NCBI RefSeq assembly: GCF_003334405.1
Contig: NZ_QOWM01000001.1
Length of the DNA: 64,000 nt
Source of the DNA: Escherichia coli
GTDB lineage: Bacteria > Pseudomonadota > Gammaproteobacteria > Enterobacterales > Enterobacteriaceae
Strand: one strand, 5' to 3'
Shown here: piece by piece, positions 4,800 through 13,768 of the stretch
Layout: each line of letters starts with the position of its first letter
Position numbering within the stretch: the stretch's first letter is position 1
Made by a program: the position numbers and the translations under genes
The notes under the pieces: generated by a model
What the model was told of the DNA's origin: nothing
The model's database searches: none
What the model saw: only the letters and a program-made list of their open reading frames with translations

Positions 4800-6002
4800 T
4801 CAGGCAGTCAGGCGGCTCGCGTCTTGCGCGATAACCAGTTCTTCGTTGGTTGGGATAACCACCGCAGGACGGGTACCTTCTTTGTTGATGAAACCAGATT
4901 TGCCGAAACGTGCAGCCAGGTTGCGTTCATGATCAACTTCAAAGCCCAGCACGCCCAGTTTGCCCAGAGACAGTTCACGAACCATTGCGGCATTTTCACC
5001 GATACCACCAGTGAATACAACAGCGTCCAGACGACCATCCATCAGCGCAGTGTAGGCACCGATGTATTTCGCCAGGCGGTGGCAGTAAACGTCCATTGCG
5101 CGCTTCGCGTCTTCTTTCGTCGCGTAGTTGTCTTCAACATAGCGGCAGTCGCTGGTCACTTCGGTCAGACCCAGCAGGCCAGACTCTTTGGTCAGCAGTT
5201 TGTTGATTGCGTCAACGCTCATGCCCAGGGTGTCGTGCAGGTGGAAGATGATCGCCGGATCGATATCACCAGAACGGGTACCCATGACCAGACCTTCCAG
5301 CGGGGTCAGGCCCATAGAGGTGTCAACGCATTTACCGTTGCGGATAGCAGAAACGGAACCACCGTTGCCCAGGTGGCAGGTGATGATGTTCAGTTCTTCT
5401 ACCGGTTTGTTCAGCATTTTTGCCGCTTCCTGGGTTACATAGAAGTGGCTGGTGCCGTGCGCGCCGTAACGACGGATGCCGTGCTCTTTGTACAGGTTGT
5501 AAGGCAGGGCGTAGAGGTAAGACTCTTCCGGCATAGTCTGGTGGAACGCGGTGTCAAATACAGCAACGTTTTTGTCTTTCAGCTGTGGGAAAGATTTCAG
5601 AGCTTCTTCGATACCGATCAGGTGAGCCGGGTTGTGCAGCGGTGCAAAAGAAGCTGCATCTTTGATACCCTGAATAACAGACTCATCGATCACTACGGAG
5701 CTGGTATACTTTTCGCCGCCGTGTACGATACGGTGACCGATAGCAGTCAGCTGCGCAGACAGTTCTGGTTTTTGTGCCAGAATAGTATTAACGATAAAGT
5801 TGAGCGCTTCGCTGTGAGCGGCGCCTGCACCTAAAGCCGCTTCCTGTTTATTGCCGTCCATTTTCCATTTGATACGTGCTTCGGGCAGGTGGAAACATTC
5901 GGCTAAACCAGAAAGGTACTCTTCACCATTTACTGCATCGATGATGGCAAATTTCAGTGAAGAACTACCGCAGTTCAGAACCAGTACTAACTTACTCGAC
6001 AT
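4800..6002 (-). CDS. ackA: Acetate kinase
   Basis: 400-aa [23 protein letters not shown]... is the acetate kinase signature N-terminus; located upstream of pta on the same strand. Confidence 0.97.
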
Positions 6003-6339
6003 GGAAGTACCTATAATTGATACGTGGCTAAAAAAACGTCAGGGAGCCATAGAGCGTAGCGCATGATGACACCGACATTTATGATTAACATCATGCACTG
6101 CAAATTTTTTTTGCATGATGGAAGAAATATCTTGAGTCTATGCCATTTTGCGTAATTTTCAGCCAATGGCATAATGTATATGAATTTGACGACTCAATGA
6201 ATATGTACTACTTAGGCCTTCAGGCTGCTAAAGGATACCTGATAGTGGGTATGGAAGACAAAATGTTTTGAACGTTGTCCCGCTGAGTTGTGAATTTGCA
6301 CAAATTTTTGAATCTTTATATGTGAAGTTGAGGTGAAGC
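6003..6339. promoter_or_regulatory. Divergent ackA / yfbV promoter region (AT-rich)
   Basis: 337-bp AT-rich non-coding spacer between divergently oriented ackA and yfbV; individual promoter elements not mapped. Confidence 0.4.
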
Positions 6340-6795
6340 ATGTCAACGCCGGATAATCGTTCTGTTAATTTTTTTAGCTTGTTTCGCCGGGGACAGCATT
6401 ACTCAAAGACGTGGCCGCTGGAAAAACGCCTTGCCCCGGTCTTTGTCGAAAATCGCGTTATCAAGATGACGCGTTATGCGATCCGTTTTATGCCGCCGAT
6501 CGCCGTATTTACTCTCTGCTGGCAGATTGCCCTGGGCGGTCAGCTTGGGCCGGCAGTTGCCACTGCCCTGTTCGCCTTAAGTTTACCCATGCAGGGATTG
6601 TGGTGGCTGGGCAAGCGTTCTGTCACGCCATTACCCCCTGCAATCCTTAACTGGTTTTATGAAGTTCGCGGTAAATTGCAGGAGTCTGGACAGGTGTTGG
6701 CACCCGTTGAAGGCAAGCCTGATTACCAGGCATTAGCTGACACGCTTAAGCGCGCCTTCAAACAACTGGATAAAACTTTCCTTGATGATTTGTAA
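6340..6795 (+). CDS. yfbV: Inner-membrane protein, UPF0208 family
   Basis: 151-aa ORF with two hydrophobic helices; position between ackA and yfbU as in K-12. Confidence 0.85.
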
Positions 6796-7371
<576 letters not shown>

Positions 7372-7381
7372 GGAGGCCCGC

Positions 7382-8032
7382 GTGCGGTGCAAAGGTTTTC
7401 TGTTTGATCTTGATGGAACGCTGGTGGATTCCCTGCCTGCGGTAGAACGGGCGTGGAGCAACTGGGCCAGACGTCATGGGTTAGCGCCGGAAGAGGTGCT
7501 GGCTTTCATTCACGGTAAACAGGCGATCACCTCTCTGCGCCATTTTATGGCGGGCAAATCCGAGGCTGATATTGCCGCCGAGTTTACGCGTCTGGAGCAC
7601 ATCGAGGCCACGGAAACCGAAGGTATTACCGCGCTTCCGGGGGCAATCGCCTTACTCAGTCATTTGAATAAAGCAGGTATTCCGTGGGCCATTGTGACTT
7701 CTGGCTCCATGCCGGTAGCGCGAGCGCGCCATAAAATAGCTGGGCTTCCCGCACCAGAGGTGTTTGTAACCGCTGAGCGAGTGAAGCGCGGAAAACCAGA
7801 ACCTGATGCGTATCTGTTAGGCGCGCAGCTGCTGGGGCTTGCGCCGCAGGAGTGTGTGGTGGTGGAAGATGCTCCCGCTGGCGTGCTTTCTGGCCTGGCG
7901 GCGGGTTGTCATGTCATTGCGGTTAACGCTCCGGCAGATACCCCGCGCCTGAATGAGGTCGATTTGGTCCTCCACAGTCTGGAGCAAATTACTGTGACCA
8001 AACAGCCAAATGGCGATGTTATTATTCAGTGA
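7382..8032 (+). CDS. yfbT: HAD-superfamily sugar phosphatase
   Basis: ORF 7364..8032; HAD motif I FDLDGTLVDS near the N-terminus; GTG start at 7382 follows AGGAGG; overlaps the yfbU stop. Confidence 0.8.
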   Translation: MRCKGFLFDLDGTLVDSLPAVERAWSNWARRHGLAPEEVLAFIHGKQAITSLRHFMAGKSEADIAAEFTRLEHIEATETEGITALPGAIALLSHLNKAGIPWAIVTSGSMPVARARHKIAGLPAPEVFVTAERVKRGKPEPDAYLLGAQLLGLAPQECVVVEDAPAGVLSGLAAGCHVIAVNAPADTPRLNEVDLVLHSLEQITVTKQPNGDVIIQ

Positions 8033-8050
8033 AACACCTGATCATGATTT

Positions 8051-8076
8051 AGCCCCGTCTCGTCGGGGCTTTTTTA
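8051..8076 (+). terminator. Rho-independent terminator after yfbT
   Basis: agccccg-tctcgt-cggggct hairpin followed by TTTTTT. Confidence 0.7.
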
Positions 8077-8118
8077 TGGCAGAATCAAGTCATCCCCCTC
8101 AATTAACAAGGATAAGTT

Positions 8119-9951
8119 GTGAACGGTGAATTGATTTGGGTTCTTTCATTACTGGCCGTTGCCATCGTCTTGTTTGCGACGGGCAGAGTGCGTATGGATG
8201 CGGTCGCTTTGTTTGTTATTGTCGCGTTTGCATTAAGCGGAACGCTGACAGTCCCAGAAGTATTTTCCGGCTTTTCTGATCCTAACGTTGTCCTGATTGC
8301 CGCCTTGTTTATTATTGGCGATGGTTTGGTCCGTACCGGTGTTGCCACCGTAATGGGAACATGGCTGGTCAAAGTTGCGGGCAATAGTGAAATCAAAATG
8401 TTGGTTTTGTTGATGCTGACCGTCGCGGGGCTTGGCGCGTTTATGAGTTCAACCGGCGTTGTCGCTATCTTTATTCCCGTGGTGTTAAGCGTTGCCATGC
8501 GTATGCAAACGTCGCCGTCACGTCTGATGATGCCGTTAAGTTTTGCCGGGCTGATTAGCGGCATGATGACGCTGGTGGCGACGCCGCCGAACCTGGTAGT
8601 CAACAGTGAATTGCTGCGTGAAGGCTATCACGGCTTCAGTTTCTTTAGCGTAACACCTATTGGCCTGGTCGTGCTGGTGCTGGGTATTTTGTATATGTTA
8701 GTGATGCGTTTCATGCTGAAAGGGGATACCCAGACCCCGCAGCGCGAAGGCTGGACGCGTCGAACCTTTCGCGATCTTATCCGTGAATATCGACTGACCG
8801 GGCGTGCGCGACGTCTGGCTATTCGCCCCGGATCGCCAATGATTGGTCAACGGCTGGATGATCTCAAATTACGTGAGCGTTATGGCGCTAACGTCATCGG
8901 TGTTGAACGCTGGCGGCGTTTTCGTCGCGTTATCGTGAACGTTAATGGGGTTTCTGAATTTCGCGCGCGTGACGTTTTGCTTATTGATATGTCTGCGGCT
9001 GATGTCGATCTCCGGCAATTTTGTAGTGAGCAATTGCTGGAGCCGATGGTACTGCGCGGCGAGTATTTTTCTGACCAGGCCCTTGATGTGGGCATGGCAG
9101 AGATTTCATTAATTCCTGAGTCAGAACTGATTGGTAAATCGGTGCGCGAAATTGGTTTTCGTACCCGCTACGGACTGAATGTGGTGGGGCTAAAGCGCAA
9201 TGGCGTGGCGCTGGAAGGTTCGCTGGCGGATGAGCCTCTGCTGCTGGGCGATATCATCCTGGTTGTGGGTAACTGGAAACTGATCGGTATGCTGGCCAAA
9301 CAGGGCCGCGACTTCGTAGCGCTGAACTTACCGGAAGAGGTGAGTGAAGCATCACCCGCGCACAGCCAGGCACCCCATGCCATTTTCTGTCTGGTGCTAA
9401 TGGTGGCGTTAATGCTGACAGATGAAATTCCTAATCCTGTTGCCGCTATCATCGCCTGCCTGCTGATGGGGAAATTCCGCTGTATAGATGCTGAAAGCGC
9501 CTATAAATCCATTCACTGGCCGAGCATTATTTTGATCGTTGGGATGATGCCGTTTGCTGTGGCATTACAGAAAACGGGAGGTGTCGCGCTGGCGGTGAAA
9601 GGGCTGATGGACATTGGCGGTGGTTACGGGCCACATATGATGCTGGGGTGTTTGTTTGTCTTGTCGGCGGTTATTGGGCTATTTATCTCTAATACCGCGA
9701 CGGCGGTGTTGATGGCTCCGATTGCGCTGGCTGCTGCCAAAACGATGGGGGTGTCGCCTTATCCATTCGCGATGGTCGTGGCGATGGCAGCATCCGCCGC
9801 CTTTATGACACCGGTTTCTTCACCTGTTAACACACTGGTTTTAGGTCCGGGAAATTACAGCTTCAGTGACTTTGTGAAGTTGGGGGTACCGTTCACCATT
9901 ATCGTGATGGCGGTTTGTGTGGTGATGATCCCGATGCTGTTTCCGTTTTGA
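8119..9951 (+). CDS. yfbS: Anion permease with two internal TrkA-C (RCK_C)-like domains
   Basis: 610-aa ORF, GTG start; hydrophobic N- and C-terminal halves flank a ~200-aa soluble segment with two repeated RCK_C-like motifs. Confidence 0.85.
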
Positions 9952-9955
9952 CAAG

Positions 9956-10000
9956 AGCCTGATGTCGCATCCGGCGCTTATTGCCTGATGCGACGCAGAC
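9956..10000. repeat. REP-like extragenic palindromic element between convergent yfbS and yfbR
   Basis: gcctgatg...cgcatccggcg...gcctgatgcgacgc resembles the E. coli REP consensus (GCCTGATGCGACGC). Confidence 0.5.
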
Positions 10001-10009
10001 TCCGGCTGC

Positions 10010-10609
10010 TTACAGCGGTGAATCCTGGCTAATCTCATCGAGCGAAAGATGGAAGCTGGGAACAAATATTTCCATGAAGTAGTCCATCTCCTGGCTGCGA
10101 CGCGCTTCAAGCGTCGCTTCCAGTCGCGTTTTTGCCAGCAAGAATTCATTATTTCCGGCCGCGAGTTCTTCCAGACATTTCAGATATGCACACAGTGCAT
10201 CTGCCTGTTTCACCAGCGATTTTTCTTCATCGCTATATGCATGCTCGTCAATTAACGGCGCAAAGATATCCCGCAGCTCTTCCGGAACCATATCGACCAG
10301 TTTTTGCTGAGCGATTTTTTCAATAGCCTTGTACTCCTGAGCGATTTGCGAATTGAAGTATTTCACCGGAGTAGGGAGATCGCCGGTGAGCACTTCTGAG
10401 GCATCGTGGTACATCGCCAGTAAAGCGATACGTTCGGCGTTGACATTACCGCCAAATTTTCGATTTTTGATAGCTGCCAGCGCATGGGCGACCATCGCTA
10501 CCTGCAAACTGTGTTCGGACACATTTTCCGTCCGCACGTTGCGCATGAGCGGCCAGCGGTTAATGAGTTTCAGGCGGGAGAGATGGGCAAAAAAATGGCT
10601 CTGTTTCAT
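10010..10609 (-). CDS. yfbR: HD-domain 5'-deoxynucleotidase
   Basis: 199-aa ORF; HD-domain motifs ([12 protein letters not shown]..., YHDASE). Confidence 0.85.
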
Positions 10610-10692
10610 AGTGACCTTACGTATGATGACATCATCAGGTCATTGTGGCGGGATAACGCTGCCGGATGCAATCTCCGGCAGTGAAATTAAGA

Positions 10693-11910
10693 TTACAGCT
10701 GATGATAACCAGAAAGGAAACGCGCGAACTTGCTCAAAGACAGCTCGATATCATCGACACGCGGTAGCGTGACAATGCGGAAGTGATCCGGCCACGGCCA
10801 GTTGAATGCCGTCCCTTGCACCAACAGAACTTTTTCCTGCAACAGGAAATCCAGCACCATTTTCTGATCGTCGTGAATGTTAAAGCGTTTGGCGTCGATT
10901 TTCGGGAACATATACAGCGCACCACGAGGTTTCACGCAGGAAACGCCCGGAATATCGTTGATCAGTTCCCACGCGCGGTTACGCTGCTCATAAAGACGAC
11001 CGCCAGGGGTAATAAATTCACTGATGCTCTGATAACCACCTAGCGCGGTCTGAATGGCGTGTTGCGCAGGAACGTTAGCACACAGGCGCATTGAAGCCAG
11101 CATTTCCAGACCTTCGATGTAGCCTTTGGCGTGTTTTTTCGGCCCGTTCAACACCATCCACCCCTGACGGAAGCCTGCAACGCGGTACGTTTTCGACAGT
11201 CCGTTAAAGGTAATGGTCAGCAGGTCAGGTGCCAGCGGCGCAATTGAGTGATGCTCAGCGTCGTCGTAGAGAATTTTGTCATAAATTTCATCGGCGAAGA
11301 TAATGAGATTATGCTGACGTGCAATCTCCACAATCTCCATTAAAAGCTCTTTGGAATATACCGCGCCGGTTGGGTTATTTGGGTTGATAATAACGATCCC
11401 ACGCGTACGAGGCGTAATTTTAGCGCGAATATCATCGAGGTCCGGGAACCAGTCAGAGGATTCATCGCAAAGATAATGCACCGCTTTACCGCTGGAAAGC
11501 GAAACCGCCGCGGTCCAGAGTGGGTAATCTGGTGCAGGAACCAACATTTCGTCCCCGCTGTTCAGCAATGCCTGCATTGCCTGAACGATAAGCTCCGATA
11601 CACCATTGCCGATGTAAATATCTTCCACGGTAACATCACGCATGCCACGAGCCTGGTAGTGCTGCATGATGGCTTTACGCGCGGAGTAAAGACCTTTGGA
11701 ATCGCAATACCCTTGAGCGGTAGGCAGGTTGCGTATCACGTCAACGAGGATTTCATCTGGCGCGTCAAAACCGAACGGGGCTGGGTTGCCGATGTTCAGT
11801 TTCAGTACCTTGTTACCTTCTTCTTCCAGGCGTTTTGCTTCTTTCAGCACCGGACCACGGATGTCATAACAGACATTCTCTAATTTGCTGGATTTTTCAA
11901 TGGGGGACAT
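10693..11910 (-). CDS. alaA: Glutamate-pyruvate aminotransferase (class I PLP aminotransferase)
   Basis: 405-aa ORF; aminotransferase class I features including the SKTY PLP-lysine region (FNGLSKTYRVAGFRQGW). Confidence 0.9.
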   Translation of the reverse strand: MSPIEKSSKLENVCYDIRGPVLKEAKRLEEEGNKVLKLNIGNPAPFGFDAPDEILVDVIRNLPTAQGYCDSKGLYSARKAIMQHYQARGMRDVTVEDIYIGNGVSELIVQAMQALLNSGDEMLVPAPDYPLWTAAVSLSSGKAVHYLCDESSDWFPDLDDIRAKITPRTRGIVIINPNNPTGAVYSKELLMEIVEIARQHNLIIFADEIYDKILYDDAEHHSIAPLAPDLLTITFNGLSKTYRVAGFRQGWMVLNGPKKHAKGYIEGLEMLASMRLCANVPAQHAIQTALGGYQSISEFITPGGRLYEQRNRAWELINDIPGVSCVKPRGALYMFPKIDAKRFNIHDDQKMVLDFLLQEKVLLVQGTAFNWPWPDHFRIVTLPRVDDIELSLSKFARFLSGYHQL

Positions 11911-12826
11911 GAATCTTGACCTTTTTTGCTGTTATCGCCACTCCCTGCCGTGGAAGTCAGCTTAGAACAATGTACTCCCCCAGGACGGTGTTTTGAAGGT
12001 CTGCAGAATAAGATTTTGCCAGAGGGGAAGGCTCGATTGTGCTGTTAATAACTTAATAATGACAAAATAATGAGGTGTATATGCTTTACATGCAATGTTA
12101 TATAGTGAATTGTTCTGATTCTTAATTGTAAGTCTGGTTTTTTTATCTGTAAGATAATTGTGTGAAAATGCCTCATTTAAGAATTCACTAATGAAACGCG
12201 ATGATGATATTTCCTCATTACGGAGAGTTTAACTGCGTGATGATTTCCGAGGTGTCGCAATGGGGGCAAGGTGTGAAACTATTGTTAAGCGGAATTAATG
12301 AATGAGGATGATGCTAATTAATTATTATTTAATATTCAAAAAGGTTTTGATGTGCTTATTAATAATAGAAGATTACTTTGCCTAACATAACATAACTTTG
12401 CATCAGATAATTCGCAATGACCCTTATAAATAAAAGGTTTTTGGGGTAAAATGCTCGGATAAATGACGGATCCCTGCTCTTGATGCCGCCTCACCATTGC
12501 TGTTGGTACGTGTTCGCGTATGACCAGCGATGCTGCACGAGAGTGGAACAAGGACTCACATTTACATTTATACAAACACGCGCATGTCATAAATAGAAAA
12601 GAGTGAGTAACTTAATAGATATGCGATCCCTGAAGATATATTCTGTGATCTACTTCAGGCATTATAACGGAACAATGTGAGTCGCTTTTTTAGTGCAACT
12701 CATATGCATTTTTACTTTCGTCCGGGTTCCGGATGAAACTGCCAGGGAGGCACATTACAAATGGAATTGCTTGTTTGTGTGTGCACAGCATTAACCAGCT
12801 CAGTATGAGCCGCCAGTAAGTGATAA

Positions 12827-13768
<942 letters not shown>

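Follow-up and report, generated by a model that had tools for sequence, protein, structure and literature searches.

The yfbS Locus and Its Surroundings

The DNA considered here (the window) is a stretch of 64,000 nucleotides of Escherichia coli (RefSeq assembly GCF_003334405.1, contig NZ_QOWM01000001.1), and the part of it under study is occupied by yfbS, which is preceded by pta-ackA, yfbV, yfbU and hxpA, and followed by yfbR, alaA, lrhA and nuo. The DNA of the gene is 100% identical to that of yfbS in E. coli K-12 MG1655 and has the same annotated ends in RefSeq, where the MG1655 product is named 'SLC13 family permease' (WP_001012899.1). A single chromosomal copy is present in all of the complete E. 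coli genomes searched (5,426/5,426), in each case with at least 95% identity, and yfbS is a core gene of the species that is already known but unstudied. Among the papers found, those naming yfbS call its product a putative transporter, and a substrate is given in none of them. The reports on its expression come from diverse settings: transcripts are raised about 3.5–4.6-fold in oxygen-limited Dickeya and Pectobacterium, not in E. coli, and are lowered in the intracellular communities of UPEC as well as in the presence of lignocellulose inhibitors. The features of the region are collected in Table 1.

Table 1. Features in and around yfbS; positions are counted from the first letter of the window.
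Feature	Position	Strand	Remarks
Hairpin and T-run of an intrinsic terminator, after hxpA	8051..8076	+	43 nt upstream of the yfbS start
Shine-Dalgarno-like AAGGA	8108..8112	+	6 nt 5' of the yfbS GTG; read from the sequence
yfbS coding sequence	8119..9951	+	610 aa, GTG start, TGA stop; ORF list and K-12 match
First membrane repeat, aa 1-200	8119..8718	+	Corresponds to VcINDY TM2-TM6 including the inward hairpin; AlphaFold2 helices 3-199
First hairpin tip, S110-S111-T112	8446..8454	+	Alignment to VcINDY, which has SNT
TrkA_C (RCK_C) domain 1, aa 232-297	8812..9009	+	Pfam PF02080, E=8.7e-9; beta-rich in both AlphaFold2 models
TrkA_C (RCK_C) domain 2, aa 326-394	9094..9300	+	Pfam PF02080, E=4.8e-11
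Second membrane repeat, aa 416-610	9364..9948	+	Corresponds to VcINDY TM7-TM11 including the outward hairpin; AlphaFold2 helices 415-607
Second hairpin tip, S524-N525-T526	9688..9696	+	Canonical DASS SNT; aligned to VcINDY 'SNTASA'
Sodium:sulfate symporter signature PS01271, aa 558-574	9790..9840	+	Regular-expression match
REP-like inverted repeat	9964..9994	.	Between the convergent yfbS and yfbR; after the yfbS stop codon

The hairpin between hxpA and yfbS was recovered by a terminator scan as seven base pairs, six of them G-C, followed by TTTTTT, and its RNA fold (-19.2 kcal/mol, z=-3.9) is described as strong. No sigma-70 promoter was found between this terminator and the yfbS start codon. 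Overproduction of PspF has been reported to raise yfbS 2.7-fold, and this induction prompted the idea of a sigma-54 promoter. The candidate considered, TGGCAG-N5-AGTCA at 8077–8092, has four mismatches to TGGCAC-N5-TTGCA, including one at the -12 G; it does not appear in a scan allowing three mismatches, which yielded 201 sites in total against 230 expected by chance, and it was rejected at the sequence level. Downstream of the gene, the inverted repeat has 12-nt arms that are 92% complementary and 7 nt apart, and it resembles the REP consensus. An Rfam scan of positions 6000–13000 returned no RNA family. Antisense reading frames overlapping yfbS (for example, 8103–8603, 166 aa), whose sole source is the mechanical ORF list, were set aside.

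Domain Architecture of YfbS

YfbS consists of two hydrophobic halves on either side of a soluble insert, as an earlier sequence-only reading of this DNA had described; the insert, put there at about 200 aa, covers approximately residues 200–415 (about 215 aa), and the halves are assigned to the DASS/SLC13 fold. In Pfam, CitMHS extends over residues 16–544 (8.6e-85) and is split by two TrkA_C domains, each of which spans nearly all of the 71-position PF02080 model. The domain HMM search which that reading had proposed as a check thus bears out its assignment of the insert to the TrkA-C (RCK_C) family. It had also noted that the insert is made of two similar units, and both of the peptides quoted for them occur in the translation; when unit 1 was compared with unit 2 by BLASTP, the alignment (E=4e-7) indicated a likeness beyond chance. 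The hydrophobic halves are likewise related to each other, with 26% identity (E=3e-6). Lysine and arginine together number 33 in the insert versus nine and seven in the membrane halves, a charge bias that fits the cytoplasmic side, and the insert is therefore placed in the cytoplasm.

Searches of YfbS against Pfam gave no match to TrkA_N/KTN, the Rossmann lobe RCK_N, and none to the AAE domain. Just two C-lobes with short linkers lie between the membrane halves in the AlphaFold2 models, and the insert is accordingly not a complete RCK. The NCBIfam DASS model TIGR00785 scores 144.1 bits, below its cut-off of 198.6, the insert dividing the match into two parts, and NCBIfam provides no specific family name for YfbS. 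The architecture itself is already known, since PF02080 has been placed on this protein in the precomputed Pfam annotation of a public protein collection; the layout is common, and it has been described for the algal SAC1/SLT proteins.

Membrane Part and Transport Motifs

The membrane part of YfbS is, according to its predicted structure, of the DASS/SLC13 (VcINDY-type) fold, with two inverted repeats that contain hairpins and broken helices. The full-length AlphaFold2 model has a pLDDT of 92.2 and a pTM of 0.88; the first row of the alignment used for it is the window protein except for A143D. In a Foldseek search, this model matched VcINDY best (2e-13), and then NaS1, NaCT, NaDC3, INDY, Pho90, DiT1/2, LaINDY and ArsB. 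A family profile built from 109 YfbS-type proteins also matches VcINDY (6e-51) and is collinear with it on either side of the cassette formed by the two RCK_C domains, profile positions 5–194 corresponding to VcINDY SEQRES 32–226, and positions 438–605 to 281–448. It follows from this alignment that the cassette stands in place of the short cytoplasmic connection between TM6 and TM7, and that YfbS has no counterpart of VcINDY TM1. Of these two helices of VcINDY, TM6 forms part of the mobile transport domain, and TM7 is part of the scaffold.

At the first hairpin tip, the three positions hold serine in 93 and asparagine in 15 of the 109 family members, serine in 72 and asparagine in 31, and threonine in 92, respectively. 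At the second tip, N525 is kept in 102/109 members, and N158 is invariant (109/109). The sodium:sulfate signature, sought with a regular expression of the PS01271 type, occurs in 61/109 members. Each hairpin-tip asparagine of VcINDY helps to form one Na+ site; YfbS retains the second of these residues and has serine in place of the first.

The structural relatives have a bearing on what YfbS may carry. One reading is that YfbS has organic substrates, namely di- or tricarboxylates such as succinate, malate or compounds resembling citrate, which it moves by symport or exchange, with the cassette tuning its activity, in which case the oxyanion idea developed below would be wrong. It draws on the best solved relatives, which are the succinate carrier VcINDY together with NaCT, NaDC3, INDY, DiT and LaINDY, and on the title of the best Pfam model, 'Citrate transporter'; however, the sulfate carrier NaS1 and the phosphate carrier Pho90 match about equally well.

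Distribution and Gene Neighbourhood

An exhaustive search over 1.84 billion cluster representatives (50% identity) yielded 15,891 hits at E<=1e-3, of which 2,495 reach E<=1e-30. Among the best 150 of the matches, most are 590–640 aa long and have the YfbS layout, while 26 measure 776–813 aa; one of these longer relatives (P0180) contains four TrkA_C domains within the same loop. The architecture is kept in 108 full-length homologues from many phyla at 32–54% identity. The homologues occur in Enterobacterales, Pasteurellaceae and Pseudomonas/Stutzerimonas, in alpha- and betaproteobacteria, and in Verrucomicrobia, Planctomycetes, Actinobacteria, Bacteroidales and Chloroflexi.

For the analysis of neighbourhoods, 1,008 ORFs were called and clustered from 80 homologous loci, two metagenome contigs being too short to inform. 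No recurrent neighbour family was found at the 80 YfbS-type loci beyond synteny within clades, and the neighbours are housekeeping genes such as lpxB, rnhB, mog, rlmF and ilvY, along with histidine kinases. With no conserved partner in 80 loci, the gene neighbourhood was rejected as a clue to the substrate. The name 'di/tricarboxylate transporter' that JGI attaches to YfbS homologues would suit the carboxylate reading, but such names are given automatically, as is the Pfam title, and genes of carboxylate metabolism do not recur nearby. E. coli already has DctA, DcuA/B/C, CitT and TtdT for carboxylates, which we count against it as well.

The RCK_C Cassette and Its Possible Role

When the cassette was modelled in isolation from a 43-sequence alignment, the AlphaFold2 model reached a pLDDT of 90.6 and a pTM of 0.83. 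Foldseek superposed it on KtrC with an rmsd of 2.0 A over 73 columns and on the RCK_C domain of KtrA (4xtt) with a TM(target) of 0.74, and it also matched the RCK C-lobes of MthK, GsuK, KhtT, BusR and PH0236, the rmsd to such lobes, that of KtrA included, being about 2 A; as a tandem, the cassette matched TrkA with a TMq of 0.45 and the AspT soluble domain with one of 0.46. Profile and sequence searches point in the same direction, the family profile matching the solved RCK C-lobes of KtrC (4e-9), PH0236, KtrA, KhtT, GsuK, MthK and BusR, and phmmer with the insert alone recovering KtrC and KtrA through their RCK_C portions (domain 2 against KtrC, 9e-5).

Within the family alignment, the mean frequency of the top residue is 0.38–0.48 in the cassette versus 0.56 in the membrane halves. 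G377, D378, L381 and G384 of domain 2 are near-invariant, and the near-invariant residues of the cassette are structural (a GD..L..G motif); the site of a ligand therefore cannot be read from conservation, and no clear conserved polar binding cluster was found in the cassette by this approach. These features are what would be expected if the tandem were a structural element, acting as a stabiliser of the dimer or scaffold or as a rigid spacer and not as a ligand sensor. No other folded part of the protein is as poorly conserved as the cassette, which has no RCK_N lobe, and relatives with four copies instead of two would fit a modular spacer; moreover, in the passages searched of the paper on the AspT structure, the soluble domain is described in structural terms with a calculated interface, and no ligand is mentioned. 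We nevertheless consider a purely structural role unlikely, if still a serious alternative, as the RCK_C domains of KtrA/KtrC, KhtT and BusR, which the cassette closely resembles, are c-di-AMP sensors, and the two folded domains have been kept across phyla at a mechanically critical link.

The same resemblance raises the question of whether cyclic di-AMP itself gates the cassette, as it does KtrA/KtrC, KhtT and BusR. The best matches of the cassette bind this nucleotide, and the arginine of an 'R..YG' motif that aligns with the RCK_C of KtrA/KtrC is kept, R348 in 75/109 and R252 in 50/109 members; yet this arginine belongs to the general TrkA_C consensus, and the family is common among proteobacteria that make no use of the nucleotide, which makes such gating extremely improbable. 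For YfbS of E. coli, which is not known to have a diadenylate cyclase, c-di-AMP was rejected as the ligand on that ground. Gating of transport by some cytoplasmic ligand through the cassette, which the sequence-only reading had suggested, is plausible by analogy with RCK_C domains elsewhere; the observation behind that suggestion is confirmed, and its interpretation as a permease with an RCK_C cassette is supported by the present analysis.

Substrate: PerO and the Oxyanion Lead

What is new in this work is the lead that relatives of YfbS may be the PerO importers of sulfate and molybdate. Two papers present PerO of R. capsulatus as a member of the DASS family that takes up sulfate, molybdate, tungstate and vanadate with low affinity, and they report that sulfate uptake is likewise supported by the PerO proteins from P. 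stutzeri, S. meliloti, R. sphaeroides, A. tumefaciens and D. shibae (PMC5840216 and PMC4710039, citing Gisin 2010 and Hoffmann 2017 for the R. capsulatus protein). We found a full-length YfbS homologue in P. stutzeri (58.5% identity) and another in Paracoccus (50.8% identity). Cereibacter (Rhodobacter) sphaeroides and S. meliloti, the latter on a pSymA-type megaplasmid, hold a second subfamily with the same Pfam domains (CitMHS and two TrkA_C), the proteins of which share 61% identity with each other and, in full-length alignments, 33% with YfbS (E about 1e-85 to 1e-90). At least two subfamilies with 33% mutual identity thus share the YfbS layout, and YfbS groups with the one from P. stutzeri and Paracoccus. 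Among the best 120 matches to the Paracoccus and Cereibacter homologues, there was no protein named from R. capsulatus, and the name PerO did not occur among the members of the homologue clusters searched. PerO (YP_003577054 in R. capsulatus) may likewise have two central TrkA-C domains. From the co-occurrence in species and this possible layout, we put the chance that YfbS belongs to the PerO type of oxyanion permeases at even or somewhat below.

When sulfate is supplied at ordinary concentrations, cysA mutants of E. coli cannot use it, which means that YfbS does not import sulfate effectively in laboratory conditions. Published work still ascribes part of the entry of molybdate into bacteria to anion importers that are non-specific and have yet to be identified; YfbS may be considered a candidate for this route. 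A more far-reaching proposal would be that YfbS is the PerO-type low-affinity importer of E. coli and provides the 'non-specific anion' route that admits molybdate, and perhaps tungstate, selenate or chromate, in the absence of ModABC and the sulfate ABC system, with the cassette serving as a cytoplasmic brake that closes uptake upon an internal signal of anion or sulfur status; taken as a whole, it is tentative and, in our estimate, doubtful. If the link to PerO is true, it would put a name to an enterobacterial low-affinity route for sulfate-like oxyanions, including unspecific entry of molybdate, and such a route would bear on the supply of molybdoenzymes and on the toxicity of tungstate, chromate and selenate.

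The layout of YfbS has also been studied in algae. SAC1 and SLT1-3 of Chlamydomonas, the latter being SAC1-like Na+/sulfate transporters, are SLC13-like permeases whose central intracellular loop bears TrkA-C domains, and they have the sodium:sulfate signature. The sequence-only reading had called both substrate and ligand apparently uncharacterised, and for YfbS this still holds; it overlooked, however, that proteins of this layout have been studied, namely SAC1/SLT and probably bacterial PerO, which narrows the likely class of substrate more than it implied. The studied proteins with the YfbS layout (SLT, and probably PerO) handle oxyanions of the sulfate type, which also weighs against the carrier of di- and tricarboxylates considered above, and we regard that alternative as unlikely, if less so than a purely structural cassette. 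SAC1 further suggests that YfbS might be mainly a 'transceptor' that senses the availability of anions and moves little substrate, as this algal protein shares the layout, bears a genuine sodium:sulfate signature and is seen as a regulator that senses sulfur. This is very improbable for YfbS, given that the motifs of the transport domain are kept as in working carriers, that no signalling partner recurs beside the gene, and that bacterial PerO is reported to transport.

A Proposed Mechanism

The explanation towards which we lean, with modest preference over its being wrong, is that YfbS is an anion carrier of the DASS-fold elevator type, with an RCK_C brake and with low-affinity tetrahedral oxyanions as its substrates. 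YfbS would be a secondary anion transporter of VcINDY-like elevator fold, built from two inverted repeats of five helices plus a hairpin, and most likely working as a homodimer, as its solved relatives do. In this protein, the TM6–TM7 link, which leads from the moving domain to the static scaffold, has been enlarged into a compact RCK_C tandem. Binding of a ligand on the cytoplasmic side may alter the packing of the two RCK_C lobes and so allow or block the movement of the elevator. As a tether between the mobile and the static portion, the cassette would most likely be a brake or latch. The substrates would most likely be oxyanions of tetrahedral shape, such as sulfate, molybdate and tungstate, handled at low affinity as by PerO. 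The YfbS family offers a tractable model of how an elevator could be controlled by a soluble sensor domain set between its mobile and static portions.

Comparison with Known Systems

YfbS has its fold, inverted repeats, SNT motif at the second hairpin tip and 'PPN'-type broken helices in common with VcINDY, SLC13 (NaS1, NaCT, NaDC1/3) and Pho90 (TC 2.A.47). Unlike YfbS, the members of this group do not contain an RCK_C cassette, and Pho90 has an N-terminal SPX domain. VcINDY, the closest solved relative, carries dicarboxylates; YfbS differs from it in the absence of TM1 and in a first tip that reads SST, not SNT.

The cassette belongs to the same domain family, and has the same fold, as the RCK_C domains of KtrA/KtrC, KhtT, BusR, MthK, GsuK and TrkA. 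In those systems, RCK_C resides in a separate subunit or follows RCK_N and is part of the gating rings of channels, whereas in YfbS two C-lobes are set inside the chain of the carrier itself.

The AAE family, of which E. coli YidE and YbjL are members, provides a parallel in an unrelated carrier. AspT, the structure of which is solved, is a dimeric elevator exchanger in which a soluble domain (S-1/S-2) joins two inverted repeats. Both AspT and YfbS have two inverted membrane repeats linked by a cytoplasmic two-lobed domain, and the cassette superposes on that of AspT as a tandem, but the membrane domains do not superpose (full-length TM 0.19–0.21). AspT/AAE and YfbS belong to different carrier families, which seem to have acquired the cassette either independently or in the very distant past.

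Close to YfbS in layout are the algal SAC1/SLT group and probably PerO. Of the species in which PerO was tested, P. stutzeri, C. sphaeroides and S. meliloti have full-length YfbS homologues with CitMHS and two TrkA_C domains, and YfbS may have its place alongside PerO. SAC1 has two TrkA-C domains, as does YfbS, and its bacterial homologues have been noted in the literature. These algal proteins are eukaryotic, and the SLTs have three or four such domains versus two in YfbS, the four-copy variant being found in bacterial relatives of YfbS as well.

Transcription of yfbS and Its Flanking Regions

The gene yfbS is preceded by a strong intrinsic terminator located after its upstream neighbor hxpA, and the interval from this terminator to the yfbS start yielded no sigma-70-like promoter (window 8051-8118). 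Overproduction of PspF has nevertheless been reported to increase yfbS expression 2.7-fold. Transcription of yfbS could depend on read-through past the hxpA terminator, or on a promoter which is not recognized as such. The short gap separating yfbS from the convergent yfbR contains an imperfect REP-like palindrome, which probably serves as a transcript end or stabilizer common to both genes.

Coordinates of features at yfbS and of second-subfamily genes
Feature	Sequence	Position	Strand	Remarks
Intrinsic terminator, strong	window	within 8051-8118		3' of hxpA; 43 nt upstream of yfbS start
REP-like imperfect palindrome	window	9964-9994		in 58-nt yfbS/yfbR gap; 12-nt arms, 92% complementary
Long antisense ORFs within or overlapping yfbS	window	8103-8603, 9168-9452, 9841-10149	-	mechanical ORF list only
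Second-subfamily gene	homologous locus L084	3992-5794
Second-subfamily gene	homologous locus L085	3986-5818

Variation and Distribution of YfbS-Like Permeases

Residue 143 (codon at window 8545-8547) is Ala, the family consensus, in both the window and K-12 YfbS, and Asp in P0001, the public cluster representative, so that the full-length YfbS structure model is that of an A143D variant. A full-length homologue with 60.5% identity is carried by a 425-kb Pseudomonas aeruginosa plasmid (H27, CP109682.1, 282832-284661), and the gene is therefore occasionally mobile. Several yfbS-bearing records in the plasmid collection (H10, H12, H13, H19 and H24-H26) are 4-5 Mb in size and are evidently misfiled chromosomes, as a result of which counts of plasmid-borne yfbS are too high. 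Another database oddity concerns two 98-aa "winged helix-turn-helix" proteins (P0548 and P0558), which share a 90% cluster with a 608-aa Stutzerimonas permease, possibly through an overlapping ORF call.

A second subfamily has a YfbS-like layout at only 33% identity to YfbS, and resides on large secondary replicons in Cereibacter/Rhodobacter and Sinorhizobium meliloti, including 29 Sinorhizobium plasmid records. These genes are plausibly those of PerO, the low-affinity oxyanion importers of the DASS family. Larger relatives of 776-813 aa comprise the bacterial protein P0180 and 25 others; P0180 possesses four TrkA_C domains in its central loop, compared with two in YfbS. The P0180 form is thus a bacterial variant of the family with a TrkA_C number also reported for the algal SLT transporters, which have three or four such domains in the central loop.
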